Below are positions 1-41,411 of a stretch of DNA of 41,411 bases, one piece after another. Positions within the stretch are counted from its first letter, which is position 1. Each line of letters starts with the position of its first letter. Below the pieces are notes generated by a model that had not been told where the DNA came from, ran no database searches, and saw only the letters and a program-made list of their open reading frames with translations. Source of the DNA: Acetivibrionales bacterium (GTDB lineage Bacteria > Bacillota > Clostridia > Acetivibrionales > RGIG10202); assembly GCA_045118635.1 (NCBI GenBank), contig JBGUYI010000052.1:1-41411 (forward strand), given 5' to 3'. The translations under genes and the position numbers were made by a program.

Positions 1-564
1 ATATTGGATGAACAAAGATTAGCAGCAGGAAAAAAAGAAGCACAAAAAGCAAAAGAACGATTAGATGAAATATTGGATGAACAAAGACGAAAAGAAGAAA
101 ATGCAAAGTGGTTGTTTAGTAATTTGCCATCGGATGAAGTAGTAGATGAAATGAACAGGGTAAATATGGCGAAAAAAGCAGCAAAAGAAGCAGCAAGATT
201 GGCACGTAATAAGTTAGCATACAAAAATTCTTTTGATGAAATAGATATTCAAGAAGCAGAATCATATATGGAAGAAGTATTTGAAAAAATAAATAATGTA
301 CTAGATAGAAGAGGTGAAGGAAAAGTTAGTAATAAAAAAACAGTAGAGTCAATAGAAGATATAGTAGAAGAGACATCGTCAAAAATTAAGGATAAAGACA
401 AAAGTTTATATGAAAAGATAAAGGAGATATTTGACAAATTTTTAGAATTTATAAAAAAGATATTTAATATGGACAAAGAAAAAATGCCAAAAGAAGAAAT
501 AAAAAAAGCTAACGAAATGCCTGATAAATCCAATGAACATAATATAAGATTAGAAAAGAAATAA
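1..564 (+). CDS. Lys/Glu-rich coiled-coil protein, C-terminal part (5' end outside the window)
   Basis: The ORF is open to the window edge in the frame of 4..564. It encodes a low-complexity K/E-rich sequence. The 18-nt string atattggatgaacaaaga occurs twice (1-18, 69-86). A hairpin with a T-run follows. Confidence 0.55.
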   Translation: MLDEQRLAAGKKEAQKAKERLDEILDEQRRKEENAKWLFSNLPSDEVVDEMNRVNMAKKAAKEAARLARNKLAYKNSFDEIDIQEAESYMEEVFEKINNVLDRRGEGKVSNKKTVESIEDIVEETSSKIKDKDKSLYEKIKEIFDKFLEFIKKIFNMDKEKMPKEEIKKANEMPDKSNEHNIRLEKK

Positions 565-589
565 GAGAGGATACAGAACCTCTCATTTT
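565..589 (+). terminator. Rho-independent terminator
   Basis: GAGAGG (565-570) pairs with CCTCTC (579-584) and is followed by ATTTT. Confidence 0.6.
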
Positions 590-620
590 CCCGTCATAAA
601 AAAATCAACAAAAAGTTTCC

Positions 621-2295: not shown

Positions 2296-2324
2296 AAAAG
2301 AGTCGAATTTAGGCTCTTTTTTTT
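2296..2324 (+). terminator. Rho-independent terminator after galU
   Basis: GAGTC (2300-2304) pairs with GGCTC (2312-2316), including one U-G pair. It is extended by A/T pairs and followed by a T-run. Confidence 0.6.
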
Positions 2325-2346
2325 GTGAATTATTTTAAAAAAAAAG

Positions 2347-2375
2347 TTGATAAAAAAATAATAACTTTTTATAAT
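2347..2375 (+). promoter_or_regulatory. Sigma-A type promoter of the ABC-2 transporter operon
   Basis: TTGATA (2347-2352), 17-nt spacer, TATAAT (2370-2375). Confidence 0.65.
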
Positions 2376-3534: not shown

Positions 3535-4222
3535 AAAAGAATTAAAAGCGTATTTATTGAATCCATTAGGATATATATTTTTGACAATATTTTTTACAAT
3601 AACAGCGTTATTATTTGTAGCAGCAAATGTAAAAGAAAGTACTACTCTTTTTGAAGCAGTTATAGTGAACTTGCGTACTGCTTTGATGATATTTATTCCG
3701 GCTATAGTTATGAAATTGTTAGTTGAAGAAAGAAGAAATAAAACAGAGCAATTGTTATTTACTTCACCAATAACAATTAGAGATATAGTTATAGGGAAAT
3801 TTTTAGCCGCAACAGCTATGTTAGTTATAACTTTGATTATAACAATGATTTATCCGATTATGTTGTCATTTGTTACAAAAATATATATACCATCTTTGGT
3901 TACAAGTTATTTAGGTTTTTTGTTATTAGGCATGGCACTTATTGCTGTTTGTTTGTTTCTTTCATCATTTACAGAAAGCCCAATAATTTCATTTTTAGAG
4001 GGTGTTGGTGGTATATTCTTTCTTTGGATTGGAGAAAGAGTTGTAGGTGGAGTTAAGAACAAATATGTAGCACAGTTTATTGATTCATTTTGTGTGATGG
4101 GAAAACTTTTTAATTTTACAAAAGGTTATCTAGATATAACTGTAGTTTTTTATTATATAACTATCATAGTTATGTTTGTATTTTTAACTATTAGACAGAT
4201 TGAAAAAAGAAGGATAGGCTAA
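3518..4222 (+). CDS. ABC-2 family transporter permease
   Basis: Multi-pass hydrophobic protein. I chose the ATG at 3518 (MIRIFKKELK) because AAGGAGG lies 7 nt upstream. It overlaps the ATPase stop, suggesting translational coupling. Confidence 0.8.
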   Translation: MIRIFKKELKAYLLNPLGYIFLTIFFTITALLFVAANVKESTTLFEAVIVNLRTALMIFIPAIVMKLLVEERRNKTEQLLFTSPITIRDIVIGKFLAATAMLVITLIITMIYPIMLSFVTKIYIPSLVTSYLGFLLLGMALIAVCLFLSSFTESPIISFLEGVGGIFFLWIGERVVGGVKNKYVAQFIDSFCVMGKLFNFTKGYLDITVVFYYITIIVMFVFLTIRQIEKRRIG

Positions 4223-4242: not shown

Positions 4243-5676
4243 ATGAAGAATAAACGTTTCGTATATAGAATGTCTAACTTAGTAATTACTTTGTCTATAG
4301 TAATAGTTTTGGTGTTACTAAATGTATTTGTAAGAGATGCTAATTGGAAAATTGATTTTACACAGTCTAAGCAATTTACATTGACAAAAGAGACAAAAGA
4401 TTACATAAAGACCATAGATAGAGAAATTAAATTGATAGTACTAGATACTAAAGCGCAATCTCAGATGCTTAATTATTTTAGACCTAATATAGAAAGAGTA
4501 AAAAAGATTGCAAAATTATATGATAAAGTAAATCCTAAAATAAAAGTGGAAATTATAGATGCAGATAAAGATCCACGTATTATAAGAAAATATATGGAGA
4601 AGGATAGAACTATATATTATGGAAGTGTTATTGTTGATGACGGCAAGAATTGGGAAATCATAAATGTAAATTCAATGTTTTATAAAAAAGATCAGGATAG
4701 TGATGAAATAGTAAAAGTTGAAAGTAAGATTACAAATATTATAAATAAAGTATATTTAGGTAAGATGAGCACTATTTATGTATTAGGAGGACATGGGGAA
4801 ATTACAGGGAATGCAAATTTTACCACTGTAGTAAAAGCATATTTAAATGATATTACCTATGATGTAAAAGAAATAAATCTAATGGCAGAAGGCATACCAG
4901 ATGATGCCGTATCTGTAGCTATAATGGATCCTGAAAAGGATATTAACGAGAAAGAGAAAAAAGAGATACAAGAATATTTAAAAAAAGGTGGAAGTTTGAT
5001 ACTTATGCTTTCTCCAAGCGTAATTGACAGAGAACCATATAACAATATACGAGAGATTGTAAAAGAATATAATCTTTCATTAGATGATAATATTGTTTGT
5101 GAAGGCAAAGGTAATTATAAAGATGCTCCACCTTGCATATTTACAAAAGTGGCGAAAAGTGAGTTAACAGAAAATATATATAATAATGGAATGTATGTAT
5201 ATATGGCAGGGGCTAGAAGTATTAGTGTTATAGATGAAGAAAATAAGGATGTTAGTATAGTACCTATATTAAGGACGTCAGATGAGTCGTGGGGAGACGT
5301 TGATTTTGATAATGTTATGAATCCAGTAAAAGACGAAACTGACAAAAAAGGTCCTTTGAATGTGGCAGTAATAGCAGCAAAGAAAGAAGAAGGAGAAGAT
5401 AGTTATAGTAAGGTTATGATATATGGTAACTCTAATTTTATGCTTTCAGGTGAAGATGGGGACATGTCATTAGGTGGATTAAAGCTTTTTACAGAATCAA
5501 TGAAATGGCTTGCAAAAGAAGAAGCAGAAATAGTGAATGTACAGCCAAGAATAGTTAAACCTATATTATATAAGACAAGTGAAGAAAATAGTAAAAGGCT
5601 AAAGATAGCAGCCTTTGCAGTTCCAGCATTGTGTGCGGTGGCTAGTGTTTTTGTGTTCGTAAAAAGAAAAGACTAG
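4243..5676 (+). CDS. GldG-like ABC-transporter auxiliary protein
   Basis: N- and C-terminal membrane anchors flank a large extracytoplasmic domain. Its position directly after an ABC-2 ATPase/permease pair matches the GldA/F/G-type architecture. Confidence 0.6.
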   Translation: MKNKRFVYRMSNLVITLSIVIVLVLLNVFVRDANWKIDFTQSKQFTLTKETKDYIKTIDREIKLIVLDTKAQSQMLNYFRPNIERVKKIAKLYDKVNPKIKVEIIDADKDPRIIRKYMEKDRTIYYGSVIVDDGKNWEIINVNSMFYKKDQDSDEIVKVESKITNIINKVYLGKMSTIYVLGGHGEITGNANFTTVVKAYLNDITYDVKEINLMAEGIPDDAVSVAIMDPEKDINEKEKKEIQEYLKKGGSLILMLSPSVIDREPYNNIREIVKEYNLSLDDNIVCEGKGNYKDAPPCIFTKVAKSELTENIYNNGMYVYMAGARSISVIDEENKDVSIVPILRTSDESWGDVDFDNVMNPVKDETDKKGPLNVAVIAAKKEEGEDSYSKVMIYGNSNFMLSGEDGDMSLGGLKLFTESMKWLAKEEAEIVNVQPRIVKPILYKTSEENSKRLKIAAFAVPALCAVASVFVFVKRKD

Positions 5677-5760: not shown

Positions 5761-6375
5761 ATGGCAAAAATAAAAAATAAAATGTTAAGACAAGCGATAA
5801 TAGCATTTGTTGTATTAATTGTTGTGATAGGTGATTTAATATATTATAAAATGAAGGATCCAAATAAGGTAGAGGATCCAAACAATGTTCCAACAGGGGA
5901 AGTTTCATTAATTAATATGGATCCATCAGCTATTGAAACAGTTGAGATGGAAGATAATACTAATGATGATATAAAGATATTTATGAAATTAAGGAATACA
6001 GAAGAAGGACTTAAAGTAGAAGAGAGAAGGGCAACATATAAAACAGAAAATCATGATAAAGATTTAGATGATCTTAAACCTTTATCAGAGAATGAAATAA
6101 AACTTATTGAAATTTCATTAACAGAGTTAAAGGCCCTTAGTGTGATTGATGAAAATGCTACAGATGTTGAACAATATGGTATGAACGATCCTATGTGCTT
6201 AATTAAGATTACATTAAAAGACGGAACTGTAAATGAGTTAAGAGTAGGGGACAAGATTCCAACATCAACGGCAGCATATTATTTTATGATGAATAATAAT
6301 AAAAAGATTTATGTAATTTCTGAGTTTGATGTGAAGAATTTCTTTAATCCAAGTGATAATATTATTGACATTTAA
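5761..6375 (+). CDS. Membrane-anchored protein, DUF4340-like (usual partner of GldG-like genes)
   Basis: An N-terminal TM helix is followed by a soluble domain, in the same operon. The SD-to-ATG spacing is unusually short, so the start is uncertain (alternative ATG at 5782). Confidence 0.45.
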   Translation: MAKIKNKMLRQAIIAFVVLIVVIGDLIYYKMKDPNKVEDPNNVPTGEVSLINMDPSAIETVEMEDNTNDDIKIFMKLRNTEEGLKVEERRATYKTENHDKDLDDLKPLSENEIKLIEISLTELKALSVIDENATDVEQYGMNDPMCLIKITLKDGTVNELRVGDKIPTSTAAYYFMMNNNKKIYVISEFDVKNFFNPSDNIIDI

Positions 6376-6378
6376 ATA

Positions 6379-6403
6379 GCCGATTCAGCTTTTTTGAATC
6401 GGC
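6379..6403 (+). terminator. Hairpin after the transporter operon (possible terminator)
   Basis: A perfect 9-bp stem: GCCGATTCA (6379-6387) pairs with TGAATCGGC (6395-6403). The loop is T-rich but no trailing T-run follows. Confidence 0.45.
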
Positions 6404-6533
6404 ATAATTAATATTTTAGAAATAATGGATAGAGATAGACCATTTGTTACAAAATAAGGGAATTTGACGAATTTTTCTTTGGGTGATAAACTTTAACTAA
6501 AGGAGAAAAATAAAATCAAATTAGGAGATAACA

Positions 6534-7739
6534 ATGGGTAAAAAAATAAAATTAAAAGATATAAAAAAGAAGAAACAAAAAGAAAATAAAATAAAAATAA
6601 TAAATACAGTGATTTTTGTGCTTCTTTTATCTAGCGTGATTTTTCTTTCTTTGATATCATATGTGAAGACAAAAAATATAAATATTTTAAAAGAGTATAA
6701 ATTTTTAGAAAAGTATATAGTGAATTTATTTGAAAAAGATGAGGATAAAATTTATTTAGAATTAAATTTTGATTTATCGCAAAAACCCAAGATAAGTGTA
6801 TATAACGGAAATATTGCTCAGTGTTCAAAAGATGTGCTAAAAATTTATAACAGATACGGTAAATTACAAAACAGTTTTAATGTTAATTTCACCAGTACTC
6901 CTATACTAAGTTCAGAAGGCAGGTATTTAGTTGTTTCTAGCATAGATGGAAATAGGTTTTTATTATTTGATGGAGTAAATAAAAAGTGGGAGAGAAAGTT
7001 AGAAGGTAATATAATAAACATTTCAGTAAATAAAAATGGATTTGTTACGGTAGTACATAAGGCAGAAGATATATTATCAAAGGTTGTGGTTTATAACTCA
7101 AAAGGTGAGGAGTATTTTGTTAAGGGAAAAGCACAAAATTATATAGTGAGTGCAAAGATGGCAAAAGATGATAGGCAGTTAATATTAAATTGTATGGATG
7201 CATCAGGAGTTAGGCTAAATTCTATATTTGAATTTATAGATGTAAAAGGAAAGAGTGTCCAAACTGTGTCGTCTTACGAAGATAAAATATTTATGGATGG
7301 AAAGTTTATAAAAGATAATAATTTTGTAACATTGACAGATAAGGAGATTATGTATTACAATTCAAACCACAATATATTATGGGAGAAGAGTTTGAACAGG
7401 AAAGTATATTGTTTTGATGTGTGTGATGATAGATATATAGTTTTGGGAATGGCGAGTGATAAGATTCAAGATGGTCTTTTTAGTGATAAAACGGAATTAA
7501 AAATTTTTAATACAAAAGGGAATGAAGTAAAAACTTTAAAAATAGATAATATAATAAAAGGAATTTCAGTATATGGTGATGTAATAGCACTAAATTTAGG
7601 TAAAGAAATTGCACTTTATACATGTAAAGGAAAACATATAAAGAGTTTGACATCTAAGTTAGAGGTGGAAAAGGCAGAACTTGTTAATAAAAGTACAGTT
7701 GTGTTACTTACAAAAAATGGTTTGATTGTTAAAAATTAA
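6534..7739 (+). CDS. Membrane-anchored hypothetical protein (Lys-rich N-terminus, one TM, beta-rich ectodomain)
   Basis: 401-aa ORF with an AGGAGA RBS. Codon and amino-acid usage match the neighbouring genes. I recognised no catalytic motif. Confidence 0.6.
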   Translation: MGKKIKLKDIKKKKQKENKIKIINTVIFVLLLSSVIFLSLISYVKTKNINILKEYKFLEKYIVNLFEKDEDKIYLELNFDLSQKPKISVYNGNIAQCSKDVLKIYNRYGKLQNSFNVNFTSTPILSSEGRYLVVSSIDGNRFLLFDGVNKKWERKLEGNIINISVNKNGFVTVVHKAEDILSKVVVYNSKGEEYFVKGKAQNYIVSAKMAKDDRQLILNCMDASGVRLNSIFEFIDVKGKSVQTVSSYEDKIFMDGKFIKDNNFVTLTDKEIMYYNSNHNILWEKSLNRKVYCFDVCDDRYIVLGMASDKIQDGLFSDKTELKIFNTKGNEVKTLKIDNIIKGISVYGDVIALNLGKEIALYTCKGKHIKSLTSKLEVEKAELVNKSTVVLLTKNGLIVKN

Positions 7740-7754
7740 ATGGAGGAAGTAAAA

Positions 7755-8420
7755 ATGTTTATTGATGTATTAATGGTGGCATTAATTATAGGTTCGTTAA
7801 TAATAGGATATAAAATGGGATTTATAAAATGTATGTTTAGGTTTTTTTCGGGTGTATTGTCATTTTTGTTTGCAATAGAGTTTTATAAACCCTTTTCTAG
7901 ATTTATGTTAAATACTAATTTGTTTTATAGTATAAAGGGTAAGATACAGTCTAATGTATTGGATATATTAGGAAATTTGGTTATAAAATCAAAAGATGAG
8001 TTAGGAAAAGTTGTTTTAGATAGAATGTTTATTCCTAATCCTATAAAAGAATCAATAGTAGATGATGTGCAAAAAAGCATTAGTATATCAGATAATTCAA
8101 GAATTGCAGAATTGGTAGGAGATAAAGTAGGAACGGTTATAATCCAGTTAATAAGTATTATACTTATATTTGTATTGGTTAGAATTTTGTTTTTTATTTT
8201 AAGACTTGTGTTAGAGAGGGTAGTTAGTTTACCAATATTAAAACAAATAAATAAAGTTGCTGGGTTAGTTATAGGTTTAATTGAAGGGGTGTTTTTGGTT
8301 TACATAGTGCTTAGTATAATATTTATCATTGATAATAAAGCCATAATAGAAAGCATAAATAATTCTGTTATTGCAAAGTATCTTTATTATAATAATGTAA
8401 TATTAGATATACTTTATTAA
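7755..8420 (+). CDS. cvpA: CvpA family membrane protein
   Basis: The N-terminal pattern MFIDVLMVALIIGSLIIGYKMGFIK and the 4-TM layout are CvpA-like. GGAGG precedes the ATG at 7755. The ORF is open from 7740. Confidence 0.6.
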   Translation: MFIDVLMVALIIGSLIIGYKMGFIKCMFRFFSGVLSFLFAIEFYKPFSRFMLNTNLFYSIKGKIQSNVLDILGNLVIKSKDELGKVVLDRMFIPNPIKESIVDDVQKSISISDNSRIAELVGDKVGTVIIQLISIILIFVLVRILFFILRLVLERVVSLPILKQINKVAGLVIGLIEGVFLVYIVLSIIFIIDNKAIIESINNSVIAKYLYYNNVILDILY

Positions 8421-8626
8421 TTTGTCTAAGTCAATACGAGTTTGCGAGTATTGCTGCGCCGGATTTGTGTACCCTACGGGTACAACTTACCATTCAAATC
8501 CGTGTGCATCCACGCGGAGCGTTATAATTCAGTCTGAGCTTGAACTCCCACTGAATTATAAATATGTATCTACCGCCTACGCTTTTTCAAGCTTAGAGGC
8601 GGGGGACATCTCTGTACTTACGTTAT
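8421..8626 (+). repeat. Structured GC-rich repeat element, copy A (ncRNA gene or non-autonomous mobile element)
   Basis: Helices are 8461-8467/8495-8501, 8469-8474/8478-8483, 8522-8533/8550-8561 (12 bp, perfect), and 8573-8578/8597-8602 extended by 8569-8571/8603-8605. By hand count, 8461-8520 is about 52% G+C. Positions 8543-8626 recur inverted at 41328-41411. Confidence 0.75.
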
Positions 8627-8696
8627 TATTGACGAAAAAAGTACCATAAAAAATAATTATCTAGTACATGTCATAATCACTAGGAGGCTGATACTG

Positions 8697-10361
8697 ATGT
8701 GGTCAAAAATATTTGCGTCAGATTCAAAACAGGAAATCTTAAGAAAATTGCATGAACTAATAAATGAAAATAGTGATAAGATAAACGAAAGAGACATATG
8801 TAATAACACAGCATTAATATATGCAGTTTTAAAAAATCATGAAGACATAGTAAAATTTTTGATTGAAAATGGAGCAAATCCCAATTTAAGAAATATTATT
8901 GGAAGAACAGCACTAATGTACGCAGTAATGAATGATAATTTAGATATAGTAAAATATTTAGTAGAGAACAATACAGATGTAAATTTATATGACAGATTTG
9001 GAGATACAGCATTGATATATGCTGTTGAGAATGGTGATTTTGAAATTATTAAATATTTAGTAGATAATAATGCAAATATAAATTGGGTTCCTAATGATGG
9101 ATATTCAGCATTGATATATGCAACAAAACGCAGGAATAAAGAGGTGTTAAAATATTTATTAGATAATAATGCAGATGTAGATATTACTGATATTTGTGGG
9201 GGAACAGCATTAATGCACGCACAAAATGAAGAAATTGCGGAGTGTTTATTATTATATGGAGCAAATATAGATGAAGTAGATAATGAAGGACGAACAGCAT
9301 TGATGTATATGTCACGGTATGGTTGTGAAAATATGGTAAAATATTTGTTAGACAAAGGGGCAAATATTGATGAGGTTGATGATGAGGGAAGAAATTCATT
9401 AATGCATGCAATTGAGTGTAGAAAGTTAGACATTTTAAAATATTTAATAAAAAGGGGAGCAAGGATTGATTTACGTGATAGATTTGGTAGGACATTGTTG
9501 ATAAGAGCAGCTAATAGTGTATATATTGATATTGTTAAATATTTATTGGAAATTGGTGTGCATGTTGATGATGTGGATAGAGAAGGACGAACAGCATTAA
9601 TGCATGTATCTAGACGTTTTGGGAATATAAAAATAGCCAGTATATTATTAGAATATGGAGCTAATATTGATGCAAAGGATAGAGAAGGACGAACGGCATT
9701 AATGTATGTGGCAGAAAGTTTGCACATAGAGATATTAAAGTGGTTAGTAGAAAATGGAGCAGATTTAAATCAAAAAGATAATAGAGGACGAACAGCATTA
9801 ATGCATGCAGTGCAAATGGGAAATATAAAAATGTTAAAATATCTATTAGACTATGGAACAGATATATATGCAAAGGATAAAGAAGGTCTGACAGTATTGG
9901 ATTATACAGATAATAAAGAGATATTTGAAATATTAAAAAATTGGAAAGATAGAATTGAGTTATTATACAAATCAAAAGATATAGTTGATGAGAATGGAAA
10001 AACAGAACTTATGAAACTGATAGAAAATAAAGAAAATGGTTTAGCCAAGAGTTTAATAAGAAGAGGAGCAAGCGTTAATAAAAGAGATAAAAATGGGAAA
10101 AGTGTTTTAATGTATATATTAGAAAATGGAGATGCATCTTTATTGGATTTTGCAAAAAGAACAAGAGCTTTAACAGTAGATAGCATTGTAAACACATTGC
10201 TTAGCTTAAAAAATTGTACCACTGAACAAGTTATGAATAGTTTAAATATAATAGATGTGAAGGATAAGGATAATAAAAAAGATATAGATGAATTTAAAAA
10301 GAGGAAAATAGATAAGATACCAGAGGAGCGTTGCAACTTAGAGATGCAAAAAACATTATAA
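8697..10361 (+). CDS. Ankyrin-repeat protein (about 13 repeats, no signal peptide)
   Basis: Repeated 33-aa units of the type GRTALMYAV..G..DIVKYLLE.GA.I/VD. GGAGG RBS at 8682. Confidence 0.9.
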   Translation: MWSKIFASDSKQEILRKLHELINENSDKINERDICNNTALIYAVLKNHEDIVKFLIENGANPNLRNIIGRTALMYAVMNDNLDIVKYLVENNTDVNLYDRFGDTALIYAVENGDFEIIKYLVDNNANINWVPNDGYSALIYATKRRNKEVLKYLLDNNADVDITDICGGTALMHAQNEEIAECLLLYGANIDEVDNEGRTALMYMSRYGCENMVKYLLDKGANIDEVDDEGRNSLMHAIECRKLDILKYLIKRGARIDLRDRFGRTLLIRAANSVYIDIVKYLLEIGVHVDDVDREGRTALMHVSRRFGNIKIASILLEYGANIDAKDREGRTALMYVAESLHIEILKWLVENGADLNQKDNRGRTALMHAVQMGNIKMLKYLLDYGTDIYAKDKEGLTVLDYTDNKEIFEILKNWKDRIELLYKSKDIVDENGKTELMKLIENKENGLAKSLIRRGASVNKRDKNGKSVLMYILENGDASLLDFAKRTRALTVDSIVNTLLSLKNCTTEQVMNSLNIIDVKDKDNKKDIDEFKKRKIDKIPEERCNLEMQKTL

Positions 10362-10389
10362 AAAAATATAGCTAAAATGGGAAAGAACT
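10053..10389 (+). repeat. About 335-bp direct repeat: 3' end of ankyrin gene 1 plus downstream flank
   Basis: About 95% identical to 11867-12209 (roughly 16 mismatches in 320 nt by hand). The identity extends about 30 nt past the stop codon. Confidence 0.85.
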
Positions 10390-10428
10390 AATGCGTAGAA
10401 AAATAATACATAAAATGGATATTTTTAG

Positions 10429-10457
10429 TTGACATGTTTAGAAAAACGTTATAGAAT
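10429..10457 (+). promoter_or_regulatory. Sigma-A type promoter of ankyrin gene 2
   Basis: TTGACA (10429-10434), 17-nt spacer, TAGAAT (10452-10457). Confidence 0.6.
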
Positions 10458-10492
10458 AACTGCAAATAGTAGTTATGTTGGGAGGAATTATA

Positions 10493-12175
10493 ATGATTTG
10501 GAAAAACATGTTTAATGAAAACGACTCAGAGAAAGATATTTTAAAAAGGCTGAAAAAATTAATTGATGAAGATGGCGTGAGTGTCAACCAACTTGATGAA
10601 AAAAGTGATACAGCATTAATGTATGTAGTTGAAAAAGCTTATAAAAAAATAGTAGAATACCTGATAGAACGTGAAGCAAATGTGAATTTACGAGGATGGA
10701 TGGGGAAAACTGCGTTAATATATGCAATAATGAATAATGACTTAAATATGGTAATATACCTTAAAGAGAATGGTGCAGATATAAATTTACAGGATAATTA
10801 CGGAACTACGCCATTAATATATGCAGTTAATCAAAATAATTTTGATATAGTGAAATATTTGGTAGAAAACGGAGCAGACATAAATAAGATTCCAACAAAT
10901 AGAGATACAGCATTTATAGAGTCAGTTAGAAAAGGAAATGTATCTATGGCAGAGTATTTGCTAGAAAACGGAGCAGAAAAAGACGTAAAAGGTTTATTAG
11001 GGGAAACAGCATTAATGTACGCAAATACTATAGAAATGGTTAGATTTTTATTAGAAAATGGTTTGGATATAAATGAAAGAGATAATAACGGAAAAACAGT
11101 TTTTATGCATGCGATTTCAAGAAGTCCCATAAATGTAGCGGAAGAATTATTAGACCGAGGAGCAAAAATAAATGATGTAGATAATTCAAAGAAGACTGCA
11201 TTAATGTACGCAGCGAATGGTCCACAAACAGAAAGAGTGAGTTTTTTAATAGAAAGAGGAGCAAAATTGGAGGAGACTGATGAGTTTGGGAGAACTGCTC
11301 TAATGTATGCAGTTTTTGGTATGTGGGAAGAGAATGTACGTTGTTTACTAAAAAATGGAGCAAATATTAACTCAAAAGATAGCTTTTACGGTAGAACACC
11401 TATGATAAAAATGGCAACTATCTATTGGCATGAGAATATAGGTAACTTATTATTAGAATATGGGGCGGACATAAATGAACAAGATAATGATGGTAAAACA
11501 GTATTAATGTATTTAGTTGAAATTAATAAAAGAATAAGAACTGAAGTCCTTGGAAGATTATTAAAAAGAGTAGTAGATTTAGAGGTAAAAGATAAGTATG
11601 ATAGAACAGTATTAATGTATGCAGTTGCTAATGAAAGAATTAATAAAGAAGTTATAAAGTTATTATTAGATTGTGGAGCAAATGTAAATGCGAAAGATGA
11701 CCATGATAGAACAGTATTAATGCATGCAGTTGGTAATAAAAAAATTAATAAAGAAGTTATAAACTTATTATTAGATTGTGGAGCAAATGTAAATGCGAAA
11801 GATTACCGTGATAGAACAGCACTTATGAAAGTGATAAAAAGTAAAAAAAATGAAATAGCAAAGCTCTTAATAACAAGAGGAGCAAGTGTAAATAAAAAAG
11901 ATAAGAATGGGAAAAGTGTTTTAATGTATATATTAGAAAATGGAGATGAATCATTATTGGATTTTGCAAAAAGAACAAGAGCTTTAACAGTAGATAGCGT
12001 TTTAAACACATTGCTTGGTTCAAAAAATTGTACCACTAAACAAGTTATGAATAGTTTAAATATAATAGATGTGAAGGATAAGGATAATAAAAAATATATA
12101 GATGAATTTAAAAAGAAGAAAATAGATAAGATACCAGAGGAGCGTTGTAACTTAGAGATGCAAAAAACATTATAA
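10493..12175 (+). CDS. Ankyrin-repeat protein, paralog of 8697..10361
   Basis: It has the same 33-aa repeat architecture. The ATG at 10493 (MIWKNMF) is preceded by GGGAGGA and parallels the MWSKIF start of gene 1. The ORF is open from 10475. Confidence 0.9.
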   Translation: MIWKNMFNENDSEKDILKRLKKLIDEDGVSVNQLDEKSDTALMYVVEKAYKKIVEYLIEREANVNLRGWMGKTALIYAIMNNDLNMVIYLKENGADINLQDNYGTTPLIYAVNQNNFDIVKYLVENGADINKIPTNRDTAFIESVRKGNVSMAEYLLENGAEKDVKGLLGETALMYANTIEMVRFLLENGLDINERDNNGKTVFMHAISRSPINVAEELLDRGAKINDVDNSKKTALMYAANGPQTERVSFLIERGAKLEETDEFGRTALMYAVFGMWEENVRCLLKNGANINSKDSFYGRTPMIKMATIYWHENIGNLLLEYGADINEQDNDGKTVLMYLVEINKRIRTEVLGRLLKRVVDLEVKDKYDRTVLMYAVANERINKEVIKLLLDCGANVNAKDDHDRTVLMHAVGNKKINKEVINLLLDCGANVNAKDYRDRTALMKVIKSKKNEIAKLLITRGASVNKKDKNGKSVLMYILENGDESLLDFAKRTRALTVDSVLNTLLGSKNCTTKQVMNSLNIIDVKDKDNKKYIDEFKKKKIDKIPEERCNLEMQKTL

Positions 12176-12209
12176 AAAAATATAGTTAAAATAAAAATAG
12201 GAAAGAACT
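11867..12209 (+). repeat. About 335-bp direct repeat: 3' end of ankyrin gene 2 plus downstream flank
   Basis: Partner of 10053-10389. Confidence 0.85.
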
Positions 12210-12240
12210 TTATTCTACATTTAGAGTAAAGTTCTTTGTT
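12202..12240 (+). terminator. Rho-independent terminator after ankyrin gene 2
   Basis: An 11-bp stem: AAAGAACTTTA (12202-12212) pairs with TAAAGTTCTTT (12227-12237). T-rich sequence follows. Confidence 0.6.
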
Positions 12241-12358
12241 AATTATAAGTAATAGAAGTATGTGTCAAGTAAATTAGGATAATATTTTTGCATTAGGGGG
12301 CTGCATTTACTTTGAATATTAAAGGTCACAATTTAGTGTAAAATTTACAATAAACATG

Positions 12359-12387
12359 TTGACACTTTGTTTGCAAAAGATTATACT
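12359..12387 (+). promoter_or_regulatory. Sigma-A type promoter of ankyrin gene 3
   Basis: TTGACA (12359-12364), 17-nt spacer, TATACT (12382-12387). Confidence 0.7.
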
Positions 12388-12424
12388 GAAACCGTAATTT
12401 TTTTTAGAAAGTAGGTTGGTTTTT

Positions 12425-13375
12425 ATGAAGAAAGGATTTTTGAAGGCTTTATGTTTGGCAGGAGTATTAGCTTTTACAATACCAGTAGTAGGTTATTGTG
12501 ATAATGTAAGTTATGAGAAAGAAAGTGTAGTTTTAGATGATGAACAAAGACACAAGGAGATTTTTTGGACACTATCAGGAAACGACGTGGAAGAAGTAAA
12601 AGCTCTGATAGAAAATGGAGTAGATGTGAATGTTAGAGATGAGTATAATTTTACCCCATTGCATTATGTGGATAATGTAGAAGTAGCAAGAATACTAATA
12701 GAAAATGGAGCTGATGTGAATGCGCAGGATGATTTAGCAGGATCTACTCCATTACATTGGGCGGCAAATGTGGAGATAGCAAAATTATTGATAGCGAATG
12801 GAGCCGATGTGAATGCTAAAGATGGTTGGGGATATACTCCATTACATTGGGTGGCAAATGTAGACATAGCAAAATTATTGATAGAAAATGGAGCCGATGT
12901 GAATGCTAAAGCTGGTGATGTAGATACTCCATTACATTGGGTGGCAAATGTAGACATAGCAAAATTATTGATAGAAAATGGAGCCGATGTAAATGCTAAA
13001 GGTTTTGTGGGAAAAACTCCATTGCATTGTACGGAGGATGTAGAGATAGCAAAAGTATTAATAGAAAATGGAGCCGATGTAAATGCTAAAGATAATTGTG
13101 AATGTACACCATTACATTGTGCAGAAAATGCAGAAGTAGCAAGAGTATTAATAGAAAATGGAGCTGATATTAATGCTAAAAACAATCGTGGAGAAACTCC
13201 ATTGGATTATATGGAGGATACAAAGGATGCATTGAATTATGAAAGGAAGACAGAGATTATAAAAGTATTGGTAGAGTATGGGGCTGGCGAAATAAGTATT
13301 GAACAATTTACAAAAGACGAACAACTTTTTAATGCCGTAGAAAGTAATGATTTAGGAAAAGTAAAGGGGCAATAA
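12425..13375 (+). CDS. Secreted or membrane-anchored ankyrin-like repeat protein (30-aa repeats), interrupted at its 3' end
   Basis: Signal-peptide-like N-terminus MKKGFLKALCLAGVLAFTIPVVGYC. Tandem units are of the type TPLHW.ANV.IAKLLIENGADVNAK. The stop at 13373 lies inside a repeat unit. Confidence 0.8.
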   Translation: MKKGFLKALCLAGVLAFTIPVVGYCDNVSYEKESVVLDDEQRHKEIFWTLSGNDVEEVKALIENGVDVNVRDEYNFTPLHYVDNVEVARILIENGADVNAQDDLAGSTPLHWAANVEIAKLLIANGADVNAKDGWGYTPLHWVANVDIAKLLIENGADVNAKAGDVDTPLHWVANVDIAKLLIENGADVNAKGFVGKTPLHCTEDVEIAKVLIENGADVNAKDNCECTPLHCAENAEVARVLIENGADINAKNNRGETPLDYMEDTKDALNYERKTEIIKVLVEYGAGEISIEQFTKDEQLFNAVESNDLGKVKGQ

Positions 13376-13584
13376 AAGATGGAGCTAATGTTAATGCTAG
13401 AGACATTTGGCAAAGAACTCCATTGTATTATGTGAATAGTGTAGAAATAGCAAAAGTGTTAGTAGAAAATGGGGCCGATGTTAATGCTAGAGATTATATT
13501 AAGATATCCCCATTGCATTATGTGGAAAATGCAGAAGTAGCAAGAGTATTAATAGAAAATGGTGCCATTAGTTATAAGGTATAG
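13369..13584 (+). pseudogene. -1-frame continuation of ankyrin gene 3 (two more repeats)
   Basis: The -1 frame reads AIKDGANVNARDIWQRTPLYYVNSVEIAKVLVENGADVNARDYIKISPLHYVENAEVARVLIENGAISYKV, ending with a stop at 13582-13584. The frames join at the heptamer A_AAG_GGG (13363-13369). Confidence 0.7.
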
Positions 13585-40548: not shown

Positions 40549-41331
40549 ATGATTTACCTAAAGACATTTAAGTTAGAATGCGTAAAAAAGGGTAATATAT
40601 ATCCTTTTAATGTATTAAGGGATAATGTATTTGTGTTTGATAATATAACAGTTTTGTATGGTAACAATGGTTCAGGGAAGTCGACAATATTAAATATTAT
40701 AGCAAATAAATTAAAATTAAAAGGAAAAGAGAGAGTTGAAGGGAAATTTGATTATTTTGGGATGTATGTGTCAAAGTGTCAATATAGCCTAGGAGAGGAT
40801 GAAAATGGAAAGGAAATATATAAAATTCCTCAAAATAGCAGATATATAAAAAGTGAAGATATATTATATGAGGTAAAAAAAGTACAACAAGATGATATAT
40901 TAAAGAAAAGTATGAAGGTTAATTTAGCAAAAGAAGAGGGATATAGCTATTCTAAAAAATTTTGGCAGACAAAACATGGAAAAAAGCAAATTGCAAGGGT
41001 TAAATTTGCACGAGAGAAATTTTCAAATGGTGAAACTACTATAAAAATTTTAGAAGAAACAATAGAGCCTGGTGGATTATACCTTTTAGATGAACCGGAA
41101 GTATCATTATCACCACAAAATCAGGTAGAGCTTGCGCAAAAGTTAAATGAAATGGCAAGATATTTAGATGTGCAGTTTATAATAGCTACACATTCGCCAT
41201 TTTTGTTAGCAATATTAGATGCTAAAAAAATATATAATTTAGATACAAATGATTATAGAATACAAAGATGGTACGAGCTTCCTAATATAAGGTATTTGTA
41301 TCAATTTTTAAGAGAGCATATGGAATTATAA
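40549..41331 (+). CDS. Orphan AAA/ABC-type ATPase (AAA_21-like)
   Basis: Walker A GNNGSGKST, Walker B LYLLDEPEVSLSP and the H-loop ATHSPFLL. There is no transmembrane partner. The stop codon lies inside repeat copy B. Confidence 0.7.
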   Translation: MIYLKTFKLECVKKGNIYPFNVLRDNVFVFDNITVLYGNNGSGKSTILNIIANKLKLKGKERVEGKFDYFGMYVSKCQYSLGEDENGKEIYKIPQNSRYIKSEDILYEVKKVQQDDILKKSMKVNLAKEEGYSYSKKFWQTKHGKKQIARVKFAREKFSNGETTIKILEETIEPGGLYLLDEPEVSLSPQNQVELAQKLNEMARYLDVQFIIATHSPFLLAILDAKKIYNLDTNDYRIQRWYELPNIRYLYQFLREHMEL

Positions 41332-41411
41332 CGTAAGTACAGAGATGTCCCCCGCCTCTAAGCTTGAAAAAGCGTAGGCGGTGGGTACATATTTACAATT
41401 AAGTGGGAGTT
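41328..41411 (-). repeat. Structured GC-rich repeat element, copy B (3' part; remainder beyond the window edge)
   Basis: The reverse complement matches 8543-8626 at 80 of 84 positions. Two of the four differences (41385, 41383) convert U-G pairs of copy A into C-G pairs. Confidence 0.8.

Follow-up and report, generated by a model that had tools for sequence, protein, structure and literature searches.

The 41,411-nt contig JBGUYI010000052.1 (assembly GCA_045118635.1, from an Acetivibrionales bacterium), which in its entirety I will call the window, carries one complete and one interrupted copy (copies A and B) of a short, highly structured repeat without genes of its own. About 80 copies of the repeat were recovered on 78 metagenome contigs (ENA gut, termite gut, rumen and hare). 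They are dispersed among unrelated flanks, have constant and precise ends, preserve their helices by compensatory change and are tolerated in frame within genes. The interpretation I favor, tentatively and at somewhat less than an even chance, is that copy A is a non-autonomous single-strand DNA element resembling those of the IS200/IS605 family, in the manner of palindrome-associated transposable elements (PATEs) or of REP sequences, its active strand being the complement of the plus strand used here. Membership in the IS200/IS605 family is unproven, the loci recovered having yielded no relative that combines these ends with a transposase.

Copies, junctions and insertions within genes

The only database relatives of the 75-aa open reading frame (ORF) at 8422-8649 are translations of other copies of the repeat (five metagenome 'proteins' in ENA), and the ORF, already doubted in a preliminary description of the window made from its letters alone, can on that comparison be taken as spurious. 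The five contigs behind these translations, L001-L005, have copies 85-98% identical to the window's; counting fragments, they contain 10 copies or fragments that are 71-100% identical to those of the window (8 of the 10 at least 85%), in unrelated contexts. A degenerate pattern for the hairpin conserved near one end of the repeat, GCCTAYGC-N4-10-TTAGAGGCGGGGGAC, picked up another 73 loci, in metagenomes of termite gut, rumen, hare and other sources. Sampling covered contigs in which the conserved hairpin is matched exactly. Copies outside the window's own subfamily were found by way of this hairpin, and the pattern detects only copies that keep that end. The repeat is therefore not confined to the two copies first noticed, and the supposition that it is multicopy, with unrelated neighbors, holds: the family is widespread in gut Clostridia-like metagenomes.

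Most of the loci found with the pattern share with the window only the conserved hairpin and the 12-20 nt beyond it, and their upstream parts split into subfamilies: W (the window's), T1-T6, R, S and U. With helices named as in Table 1, the order of parts in R and S is one or two 5' hairpins, the 5' strand of a helix P1, Pa, Pb, Pc/Pd and a tail of 12-15 nt, the P1 5' strand pairing with the last bases of the unit. Their Pc/Pd reads CCC-A-CCGCCU-AC-stem-loop-stem-UUAG-AGGCGG-GGG. A covariance model built from 12 W copies aligns over its full length to a long S copy (L015), to L054, L062 and L074, and to a diverged copy in L002. None of the copies has an ORF, and remnants of 45-55 nt consisting of the hairpin only are common. 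Truncated copies (L002d, L030, L046, L047, L053, L058) keep the conserved-hairpin end and lose the opposite one. Contigs often end inside copies, as do the window, L001 and L067. Contig L002 has four copies within 6 kb (5954-11936), and in it a 5'-truncated, diverged copy directly follows the last base of a full copy (10205/10206).

The repeat belongs to no catalogued family, and the preliminary description, which could not place it, was right in this. In Rfam 15 only a tRNA of the window reaches the gathering score, nothing relevant appears at E <= 10 over 8300-8800, and 12 loci covering the other subfamilies have no match at E <= 0.05. The exact 20-mer AGAGGCGGGGGACATCTCTG, part of which lies in the window-specific tail allele, has no match among species-representative genomes, JGI metagenomes and viral contigs; the back-translated spurious ORF has none among genome contigs, and BLAST found no match to the repeat in plasmid and phage collections. 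The literature searched contains no description of it.

Copy A, whose ends were set by alignment with 10 further full-length copies, is 193-197 nt long, next to a flanking TTATT, and is scored at 229.7 bits over 8430-8627 by the family covariance model. It had been drawn as 8421-8626. The right-hand limit stands, inter-copy identity stopping at 8626 (...ACGTTAT), but alignment between copies moves the left end to G8430 (GTCAATACGAG...). Since the pentanucleotide at 8623-8627 is read as target DNA, for reasons given below, the element proper is probably 8430-8622. Its G+C content is 51.7% over 8461-8520 (the hand count of about 52% was accurate) and 45.7% over 8430-8626, as compared to 25-29% in the flanks and 29.5% in the whole window.

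Copy B is the only other copy that the model detects in the window; it scores 81.8 bits over positions 114-196 of the model, which marks it as incomplete 5'. The window is the entire contig and terminates inside copy B, which is incomplete because the assembly broke inside the repeat. The minus strand of 41328-41411 is identical to 8543-8626 at 80 of 84 positions, reproducing the inverted partial copy reported earlier, and the differences between copies A and B are G8553T, A8558G, T8569C and T8571C. Where copy A has TTATT, copy B has TTATA.

The 10 full-length W copies with tabulated junctions begin GTCAAT after unrelated sequence, and they show neither terminal inverted repeats nor target duplication. 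A miniature inverted-repeat transposable element of the classical kind, derived from a DDE transposon, was rejected because W copies lack such terminal repeats and a target duplication of fixed length. At the conserved-hairpin end, all 76 unique junctions read G|TT, then A/C/G, T/A and A, and the information drops to zero by position +6/+7. The flanking motif is TTATA in the T subfamilies and part of W, TTAAA in S, U and part of W, and TTCA in R (complements TATAA, TTTAA and TGAA). In W the pentanucleotide is conserved on one side only.

Three S-type copies (L018, L046 and L047; Table 1) lie inside genes, antisense and in frame, and the proteins gain the peptide ...F-N-x-x-S/A-K-S-P-A-S-K..., in extended form ...KSPASK(S/G/D)R(V/I)G.... 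The PDB homologues of the L046 product are too distant to give the size of its insertion. Compared with eight homologues (59-81% identical), the L047 product has a net in-frame insertion of exactly 15 residues (45 nt), and it has L-F-N where all eight have L-F-K. Orthologous DNA at the empty site reads TTC AAA GAA GAT AAG|TTG GAC AAA and the filled site CTT TTT AA|C CAT CGA AGC AAG TCC CCC..., the lysine codon being interrupted precisely at TTTAA|C. Against the net gain of 45 nt, about 55 nt appear to derive from the element, and some 10 nt of host DNA would thus have been lost at the truncated end. From this codon break and from the conservation profile of the junctions, I take the pentanucleotide, with moderate confidence, to be target DNA to which the conserved-hairpin end is joined precisely.

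An insertion that is precise at the conserved end, truncated elsewhere and accompanied by the loss of 10 nt of host DNA is also the signature of target-primed reverse transcription. The repeat might thus be a bacterial counterpart of short interspersed elements (SINEs), with an RNA that ends in the conserved hairpin, a reverse transcriptase supplied in trans and priming at a nick in TTAAA/TTATA. In the orientation used here the conserved end would be the 3' end, the opposite end is variable and is lost in truncated copies, and the flank after the element is A-rich. I consider this quite improbable. Retention of the hairpin end is a bias built into the search pattern, and the truncated copies in genes are explicable by selection for in-frame deletions. 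The sole reverse transcriptase near any copy belongs to an inserted group II intron, and the element has neither an internal promoter nor any strand asymmetry. No SINE-like mechanism of retro-insertion is known in bacteria.

Structure and the internal complement of the junction

The 230-nt stretch containing copy A folds with -75.3 kcal/mol (z = -5.6) on the plus strand and -71.0 kcal/mol (z = -4.5) on the minus strand, and none of 200 dinucleotide shuffles folds as stably on either strand. The helices listed in the preliminary description are all present, base for base, among them the 6 bp of 8469-8474/8478-8483 within the nested hairpin. P0 shows compensatory changes at 6 of 6 pairs across the family (for example CAAGATTTT/AAAATCTTG in L003). 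In the nested hairpin, the inner helix changes from A-U to G-C in 5-6 copies and the outer from U-A to G-C in L003, with which outer helix Pa shares 2-3 nt; Pa is not conserved in L004-type copies. The CUUGAA loop of Pb, closed by covarying pairs, is found in subfamilies W, S and R. Pc/Pd is the sequence signature of the whole superfamily, its conserved core CCGCCUAC...UUAGAGGCGGGGG lying near one end of all copies. Its helix of 6 bp (8573-8578/8597-8602) is extended by 8569-8571/8603-8605 (U-G, C-G, U-G), and in this hairpin copies A and B differ only at T8569C and T8571C. A tRNA-like 3' end (TTCAAATCC...CCA) was considered and rejected, there being no T-arm pairing and no ARAGORN or Rfam signal.

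That substitutions would preserve the helices had been predicted from two copies, and the family agrees. Of 51 pairs, 10 change on both sides in a MAFFT alignment (3.5 in shuffles), and 92% of its cells are paired as compared to 32-47% when the partners are slid; a wider, model-fitted alignment gives 27 of 51 (8.7 in shuffles). The attempt to assign a strand from wobble pairs or folding energy was abandoned for want of a signal: G-U and A-C cells are equally frequent in the W helices (16 vs 14), and over 62 distinct copies one strand is the more stable in 32 and the other in 30 (Wilcoxon p = 0.62). The proposal that the plus strand of copy A is a functional RNA strand is not supported by these figures, as far as sequence can show. 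The two U-G pairs at T8569 and T8571 on which it was built are real, but the pattern does not extend across the family. Structure is under selection without strand specificity, as expected of DNA hairpins rather than of one RNA strand, and it is the junctions that would make the complementary strand the 'top' strand of a transposon.

If the repeat were first of all a non-coding RNA gene (for a regulatory small RNA, a ribozyme so far unrecognized or an orphan scaffold of the omega-RNA kind), with spread as a secondary matter, this would account for seven helices with compensatory substitutions even across subfamilies that share little sequence. The conserved CUUGAA loop and the asymmetric internal loop in the terminal hairpin resemble recognition sites, a group II intron inserted in the same orientation in L012 suggests that this strand is transcribed, and PATEs have often been reported to encode omega-RNAs (PMC10055086). 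I nevertheless judge such a gene unlikely. The element contains no promoter-like or terminator-like site in either orientation, it has no asymmetry between strands in wobble pairs or folding energy, and it has no Rfam match even at the permissive threshold. Moreover, its copies lie in both orientations relative to their neighbors, within coding sequences and as hairpin-only remnants.

The 5' strand of Pb (TTATAATTCAG...) is, in other copies, complementary to the last bases of the element together with the flanking pentanucleotide, and the two covary across the family (TTATAA/TTATA, TTTAAC/GTTAAA, TGAACC/GGTTCA). The W tail pairs with this strand over 12-13 bp in L001, L003, L004, L005, L029, L032 and L035. 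The tail of copy A does not pair with its own Pb 5' strand. Its allele (CTGTACTTACG) is also that of copy B (whose Pb 5' strand lies past the contig end), L001b, L002a, L002b and L024, and its complement is the Pb 5' strand of L054. Because the tails of copy A, L002a/b and L024 mismatch their own Pb and match that of L054, tails have been exchanged between alleles across the conserved hairpin. Since these same copies are mismatched, pairing between tail and internal segment is not needed for spread.

Tail exchange flanking the conserved hairpin (copy A and L024 vs L054) is what crossovers there would predict, and raises the question whether the repeat is a non-autonomous DNA element moved by a different recombinase, either at an attC-like site (where a tyrosine recombinase would cross over at G|TT) or in the manner of IS91 or IS110. 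There would be a circular or hairpin intermediate, with the conserved hairpin as the recombination site. The attC sites of integrons have R''/R' boxes (RYYYAAC/GTTRRRY) and cross over at G|TT, the bases found here at 76 of 76 junctions, and the internal partner ends in AAC. In T1 and T2 both junctions show TTATA(A), which is what a recombination core common to them would look like, and the GTTC of subfamily R matches the classical target of IS91. Other features do not fit, however. W junctions share no core, the putative R box strands lie two hairpins apart with no single continuous stem, and the hairpin is strongly conserved in sequence whereas attC sites conserve structure only. The copies do not behave as gene cassettes, being solitary and ORF-less and forming no arrays, and among 150 neighboring ORFs there is no integrase and no enrichment of any recombinase. 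On balance this is a doubtful explanation.

Table 1. Features of the two window copies and positions of the copies within genes. Helix names are those used in the text.
Feature	Positions	Strand	Remarks
Copy A, element proper	8430..8622	+	193 nt; ends from alignment
Terminal hairpin P0	8432..8453	+	CAATAC / GTATTG, apical GAGTTTGCGA; from folding; 2 bases from the variable-flank end
Nested hairpin	8461..8501	+	outer 8461-8467/8495-8501 (7 bp), inner 8468-8474/8478-8484
Short hairpin Pa	8500..8517	+	CCGTGTG CATC CACGCGG; from folds of shorter segments; weakly supported
Hairpin Pb	8522..8561	+	12 perfect bp 8522-8533/8550-8561; apical loop CTTGAA 8539-8544
Conserved hairpin Pc/Pd	8564..8609	+	ATGT-A-TCT-A-CCGCCT-AC-GCTT-TTTC-AAGC-TTAG-AGGCGG-GGG-ACAT
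Tail	8610..8622	+	CTCTGTACTTACG; 13 nt, conserved hairpin to junction
Flanking pentanucleotide	8623..8627	+	TTATT (complement AATAA); probable target motif outside the element; from junction conservation and L047
Copy B, last 80 nt of element	41332..41411	-	part of Pb, Pc/Pd, tail; cut by contig end
TATAA abutting copy B	41327..41331	+	includes stop codon 41329-41331 of AAA-ATPase gene 40549-41331
Insertion in L018	~440-620		ABC ATPase; nearly full-length unit, about 50 residues
Insertion in L046	~5310-5375		glycyl-radical enzyme
Insertion in L047	~2300-2360		RluA-family pseudouridine synthase

A proposed single-strand DNA route of movement

On the IS200/IS605-like interpretation, the element would move as single-stranded DNA by the 'peel-and-paste' route of such elements, through a Y1 (HUH) TnpA transposase supplied in trans from elsewhere in the genome; the single-stranded intermediate and the identity of the enzyme are what I infer. 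The active 'top' strand would be the complement of the one presented, and insertion would take place directly 3' of the pentanucleotide (TATAA/AATAA in the window, TTTAA/TGAA in sister subfamilies). The 'left end' would consist of the 13-nt tail and the conserved hairpin (window 8564-8622), with a spacer of 13-19 nt across the family. The 'right end' would be the remaining 130-odd nt, closing with P0 two bases from the boundary (...GTATTGAC|), and may also encode a scaffold similar to a guide RNA.

IS200/IS605 elements lack terminal inverted repeats, do not duplicate their target, have hairpins at both ends and insert 3' of a tetra- or pentanucleotide (PMC7290912, PMC3201880), and the repeat resembles them in its ends. 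TTTAA is a documented IS605 insertion site and transposon-adjacent motif (PMC11043419). The repeat has subterminal hairpins at both ends (P0 lies 2 nt from one, and the foot of Pc/Pd 13 nt from the other) and no ORF, in agreement with the earlier suggestion of a non-autonomous, hairpin-ended element. The pentanucleotide AGCTT (AAGCT on the complement) is found apically in Pb (8537-8541) and in Pd (8590-8594) of copy A, and in P0 of most other W copies, where copy A has AGTTT (8439-8443). On the predicted top strand AAGCT occurs 2-3 times per W copy and, across the family, 39 times as compared to 9 in the reverse orientation. An AAGCT loop motif has been proposed as a TnpA recognition signal in the ends of Halanaerobium IS605 (PMC7290912). 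Here, absent as it is from several subfamilies, it is only a hint of such a signal.

The internal complement of the junction echoes IS608, in which a DNA guide pairs with the cleavage site (PMC7290912, PMC3201880). It is a rather improbable thought that the 9-14-nt internal segment serves as a guide that picks the target or, alternatively, that the repeat is the first bacterial SINE-like retroelement with a conserved 3' hairpin. If the flank is target DNA, guided insertion of this kind would differ from what IS608 does with its 4-nt guides and from the systems of bridge RNAs and group II introns, and if the segment does direct target choice, it would represent a new and very compact form of nucleic-acid-guided DNA insertion.

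A number of observations weigh against an IS200/IS605-like element. In none of the 78 loci is there a tnpA, tnpB or iscB gene enclosed by these ends or adjacent to them, the ORFs found where tnpA or tnpB would sit being ordinary genes. Of the early suggestion that the repeat derives from the IS200/IS605 type, what survives is that this is the best fit found; ends shared with tnpA, tnpB or iscB do not. In favor of the reading, two of the four W-family sequences that exceed 3 kb do carry a Y1 transposase gene: L001, whose contig bears W copies, has an IS200 (3662-4018), and L024, a short contig with a W copy, has a complete IS605 (138-1636; tnpA of 134 aa with Y1_Tnp, tnpB of 363 aa with OrfB_IS605 and a Cas12f1-like TNB). 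Both were rejected as parents, their ends being dissimilar, with only chance-level matches of 7-12 nt.

The ends themselves pose difficulties as well. The two terminal hairpins are unlike each other. Subfamilies have the conserved-hairpin end in common but nothing of the end at P0, an awkward arrangement because a single TnpA must bind both. P0 lies just 2 nt from its boundary. The internal complement, with its 9-14 nt, is no tetranucleotide at the hairpin's foot but stands 60-100 nt away from the hairpin, and in copy A, L002a/b and L024 it is mismatched to the tail. The TTATA(A) on both sides of T1 and T2 might just as well represent a target duplication of 5 bp or the core of a recombination site. 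The reading of the pentanucleotide as target DNA rests on one gene with usable homologues (L047), and that gene has its loss of 10 nt. Finally, all truncated copies retain the conserved-hairpin end, which fits retro-insertion too, in a set drawn with a pattern biased to that end.

Genomic context and comparison with known systems

The 150 ORFs within 3.5 kb of copies match 181 Pfam families, an unrelated assortment in which no transposase, integrase or reverse transcriptase is present more than once. The only reverse transcriptase near any copy is part of a complete group II intron (L012:2565-4638, minus strand), which interrupts a T1 copy after 18 nt and has the orientation of that copy. The intron has a canonical 5' GTGCG, a match to Rfam group-II-D1D4-6, a reverse transcriptase/maturase of 539 aa, its own canonical domain V (GAGCCCATTGCC...GGGCACGATGGGTTC), its own domain VI and an extra 49-nt 3' extension of two hairpins. 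Short T1 copies are equivalent to its two flanks joined.

It is hardly credible that the repeat itself represents domains V-VI of a group II intron, or some different intron or ribozyme already known, despite a terminal hairpin with a low CGC triplet and a 2-nt bulge in the 3' strand that superficially resembles domain V, an end in AU, and a copy contiguous with a group II intron in L012. Too few bases follow the hairpin for a domain VI, the L012 intron has its own 5' end and domains V and VI and interrupts the repeat, and no Rfam intron matches at E <= 10.

Some copies lie beside genes for structured RNAs. A tmRNA gene (601-988) stands between two W copies in L035:400-1668, the first copy ending about 5 nt before it, and the copy at L024:3382-3639 begins 4-8 nt past a tRNA gene, following its 3' end on the strand that both share. 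Chance may account for these positions, or else the repeat may favor such sites. An unrelated T-box leader (L064:1656-1834; 82.6 bits, below the Rfam gathering score of 93) lies about 1.4 kb from a U copy.

The window is an ordinary Clostridia-like chromosome segment, with no transposase or other mobile-element gene in its 41 kb, and both of its copies are probably neutral passengers. They are opposite in orientation, and GC skew is positive where it was profiled (7000-9999); two copies are too few to reveal the bias toward replication (top strand on the lagging-strand template) that IS200/IS605 elements would show. Copy A starts 9 nt past the stop codon of a cvpA-like gene (7740-8420; Pfam Colicin_V match). 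Copy B adds nothing to the AAA-ATPase gene that it abuts, but possibly shares its stop codon; the product is 3-14 residues shorter than its homologues. The nearest of these is only 70% identical, and for this reason no orthologous empty site is available for the window copies. Two bases past copy A there is a promoter-like site (TTGACG-17-AATAAT, 10 of 12 matches, 8629-8657), upstream of the first of three consecutive ankyrin-repeat genes (8697-13375; 554, 566 and 319 aa). The insertion may have displaced this site or supplied nothing to it. The first two ankyrin genes share a 300-nt segment that is 91% identical (10001-10300 and 11815-12114), and the third has a 90-nt tandem array (about 12518-13565). 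Elsewhere in the window, three repeats resembling DnaA boxes (AAGTTATACACATTATCCACAA), 173 and 137 nt apart, lie at 1011-1353 between a tRNA gene (678-751) and a nucleotidyl-transferase gene, with no dnaA nearby and a 36-nt unit exactly duplicated (1172-1207 and 1309-1344).

Repeats of this kind have practical consequences. They break assemblies, as seen at the end of the window's contig; they give rise to spurious ORFs, here a 75-aa 'gene' with five database relatives; and they can add in-frame peptides to real proteins. One hairpin is fixed in sequence, in a unit that for the most part evolves through compensatory change, and this provides a handle for finding the protein that moves the repeat.

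PATEs are ORF-less derivatives of IS200/IS605 (PMC3119063, PMC7290912, PMC10055086), laid out with a short end of one hairpin and a long structured end (PMC7290912, PMC10055086; IStron preprint 10.1101/2023.11.20.567912). They have much in common with the repeat: units of 200-270 nt without an ORF, inverted terminal repeats or target duplication (the last as seen in W), a hairpin per end, one end short and one long and structured, a conserved pentanucleotide abutting one end, and mobilization in trans (proposed for the repeat). The repeat differs in having no parent insertion sequence that shares its ends, in end hairpins that are dissimilar, in one end conserved across subfamilies and the other not, in an internal segment of 9-14 nt in place of a 4-nt guide at the hairpin foot, and in the frequency of its hairpin-only remnants.

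The movement of REP sequences is ascribed to a Y1/HUH transposase whose single-copy gene lies elsewhere in the genome. They are single palindromes of 20-40 nt, tagged GTAG or CGTC, that cluster as BIMEs or REPINs. Like REP/BIME sequences with their RAYT (TnpA-REP) proteins (PMC3733652), the repeat consists of GC-rich hairpins in high copy outside genes, and its minimal copies are REP-sized. Its full unit of 170-200 nt is unlike a REP, with seven helices in fixed order, and no RAYT gene was seen in the loci.

Another Firmicute repeat, bcr1 of the Bacillus cereus group, is about 155 bp long, with TTTAT at both ends and a stable predicted RNA fold. By description, not by sequence, the two are alike: ORF-less, intergenic, about 150-200 bp and strongly folded in prediction, with junctions marked by an AT-rich pentanucleotide, for which the TTATA flanking T1 and T2 on both sides is the parallel, although W has its pentanucleotide on one side only. 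The palindromic elements of Rickettsia are hairpin repeats tolerated in frame in genes and translated as extra loops, recalling the ...KSPASK... peptide gained in L018, L046 and L047; the hosts and sequences are other ones, and most copies of the present repeat are intergenic. Repeats of the bcr1 type are mentioned in PMC6542083.

The repeat is similar to the omega-RNA scaffolds of TnpB and IscB in that a multi-stem region fills the long end of an IS605-type unit. It differs from them in lacking a linked TnpB or IscB, an Rfam match, strand asymmetry and any similarity to the right end of the L024 IS605. Compared with all of these systems, what is known is the habit of a PATE- or REP-type passenger, and what is new is a fixed unit of seven helices, a single hairpin conserved in sequence and an internal complement that spans the junction.

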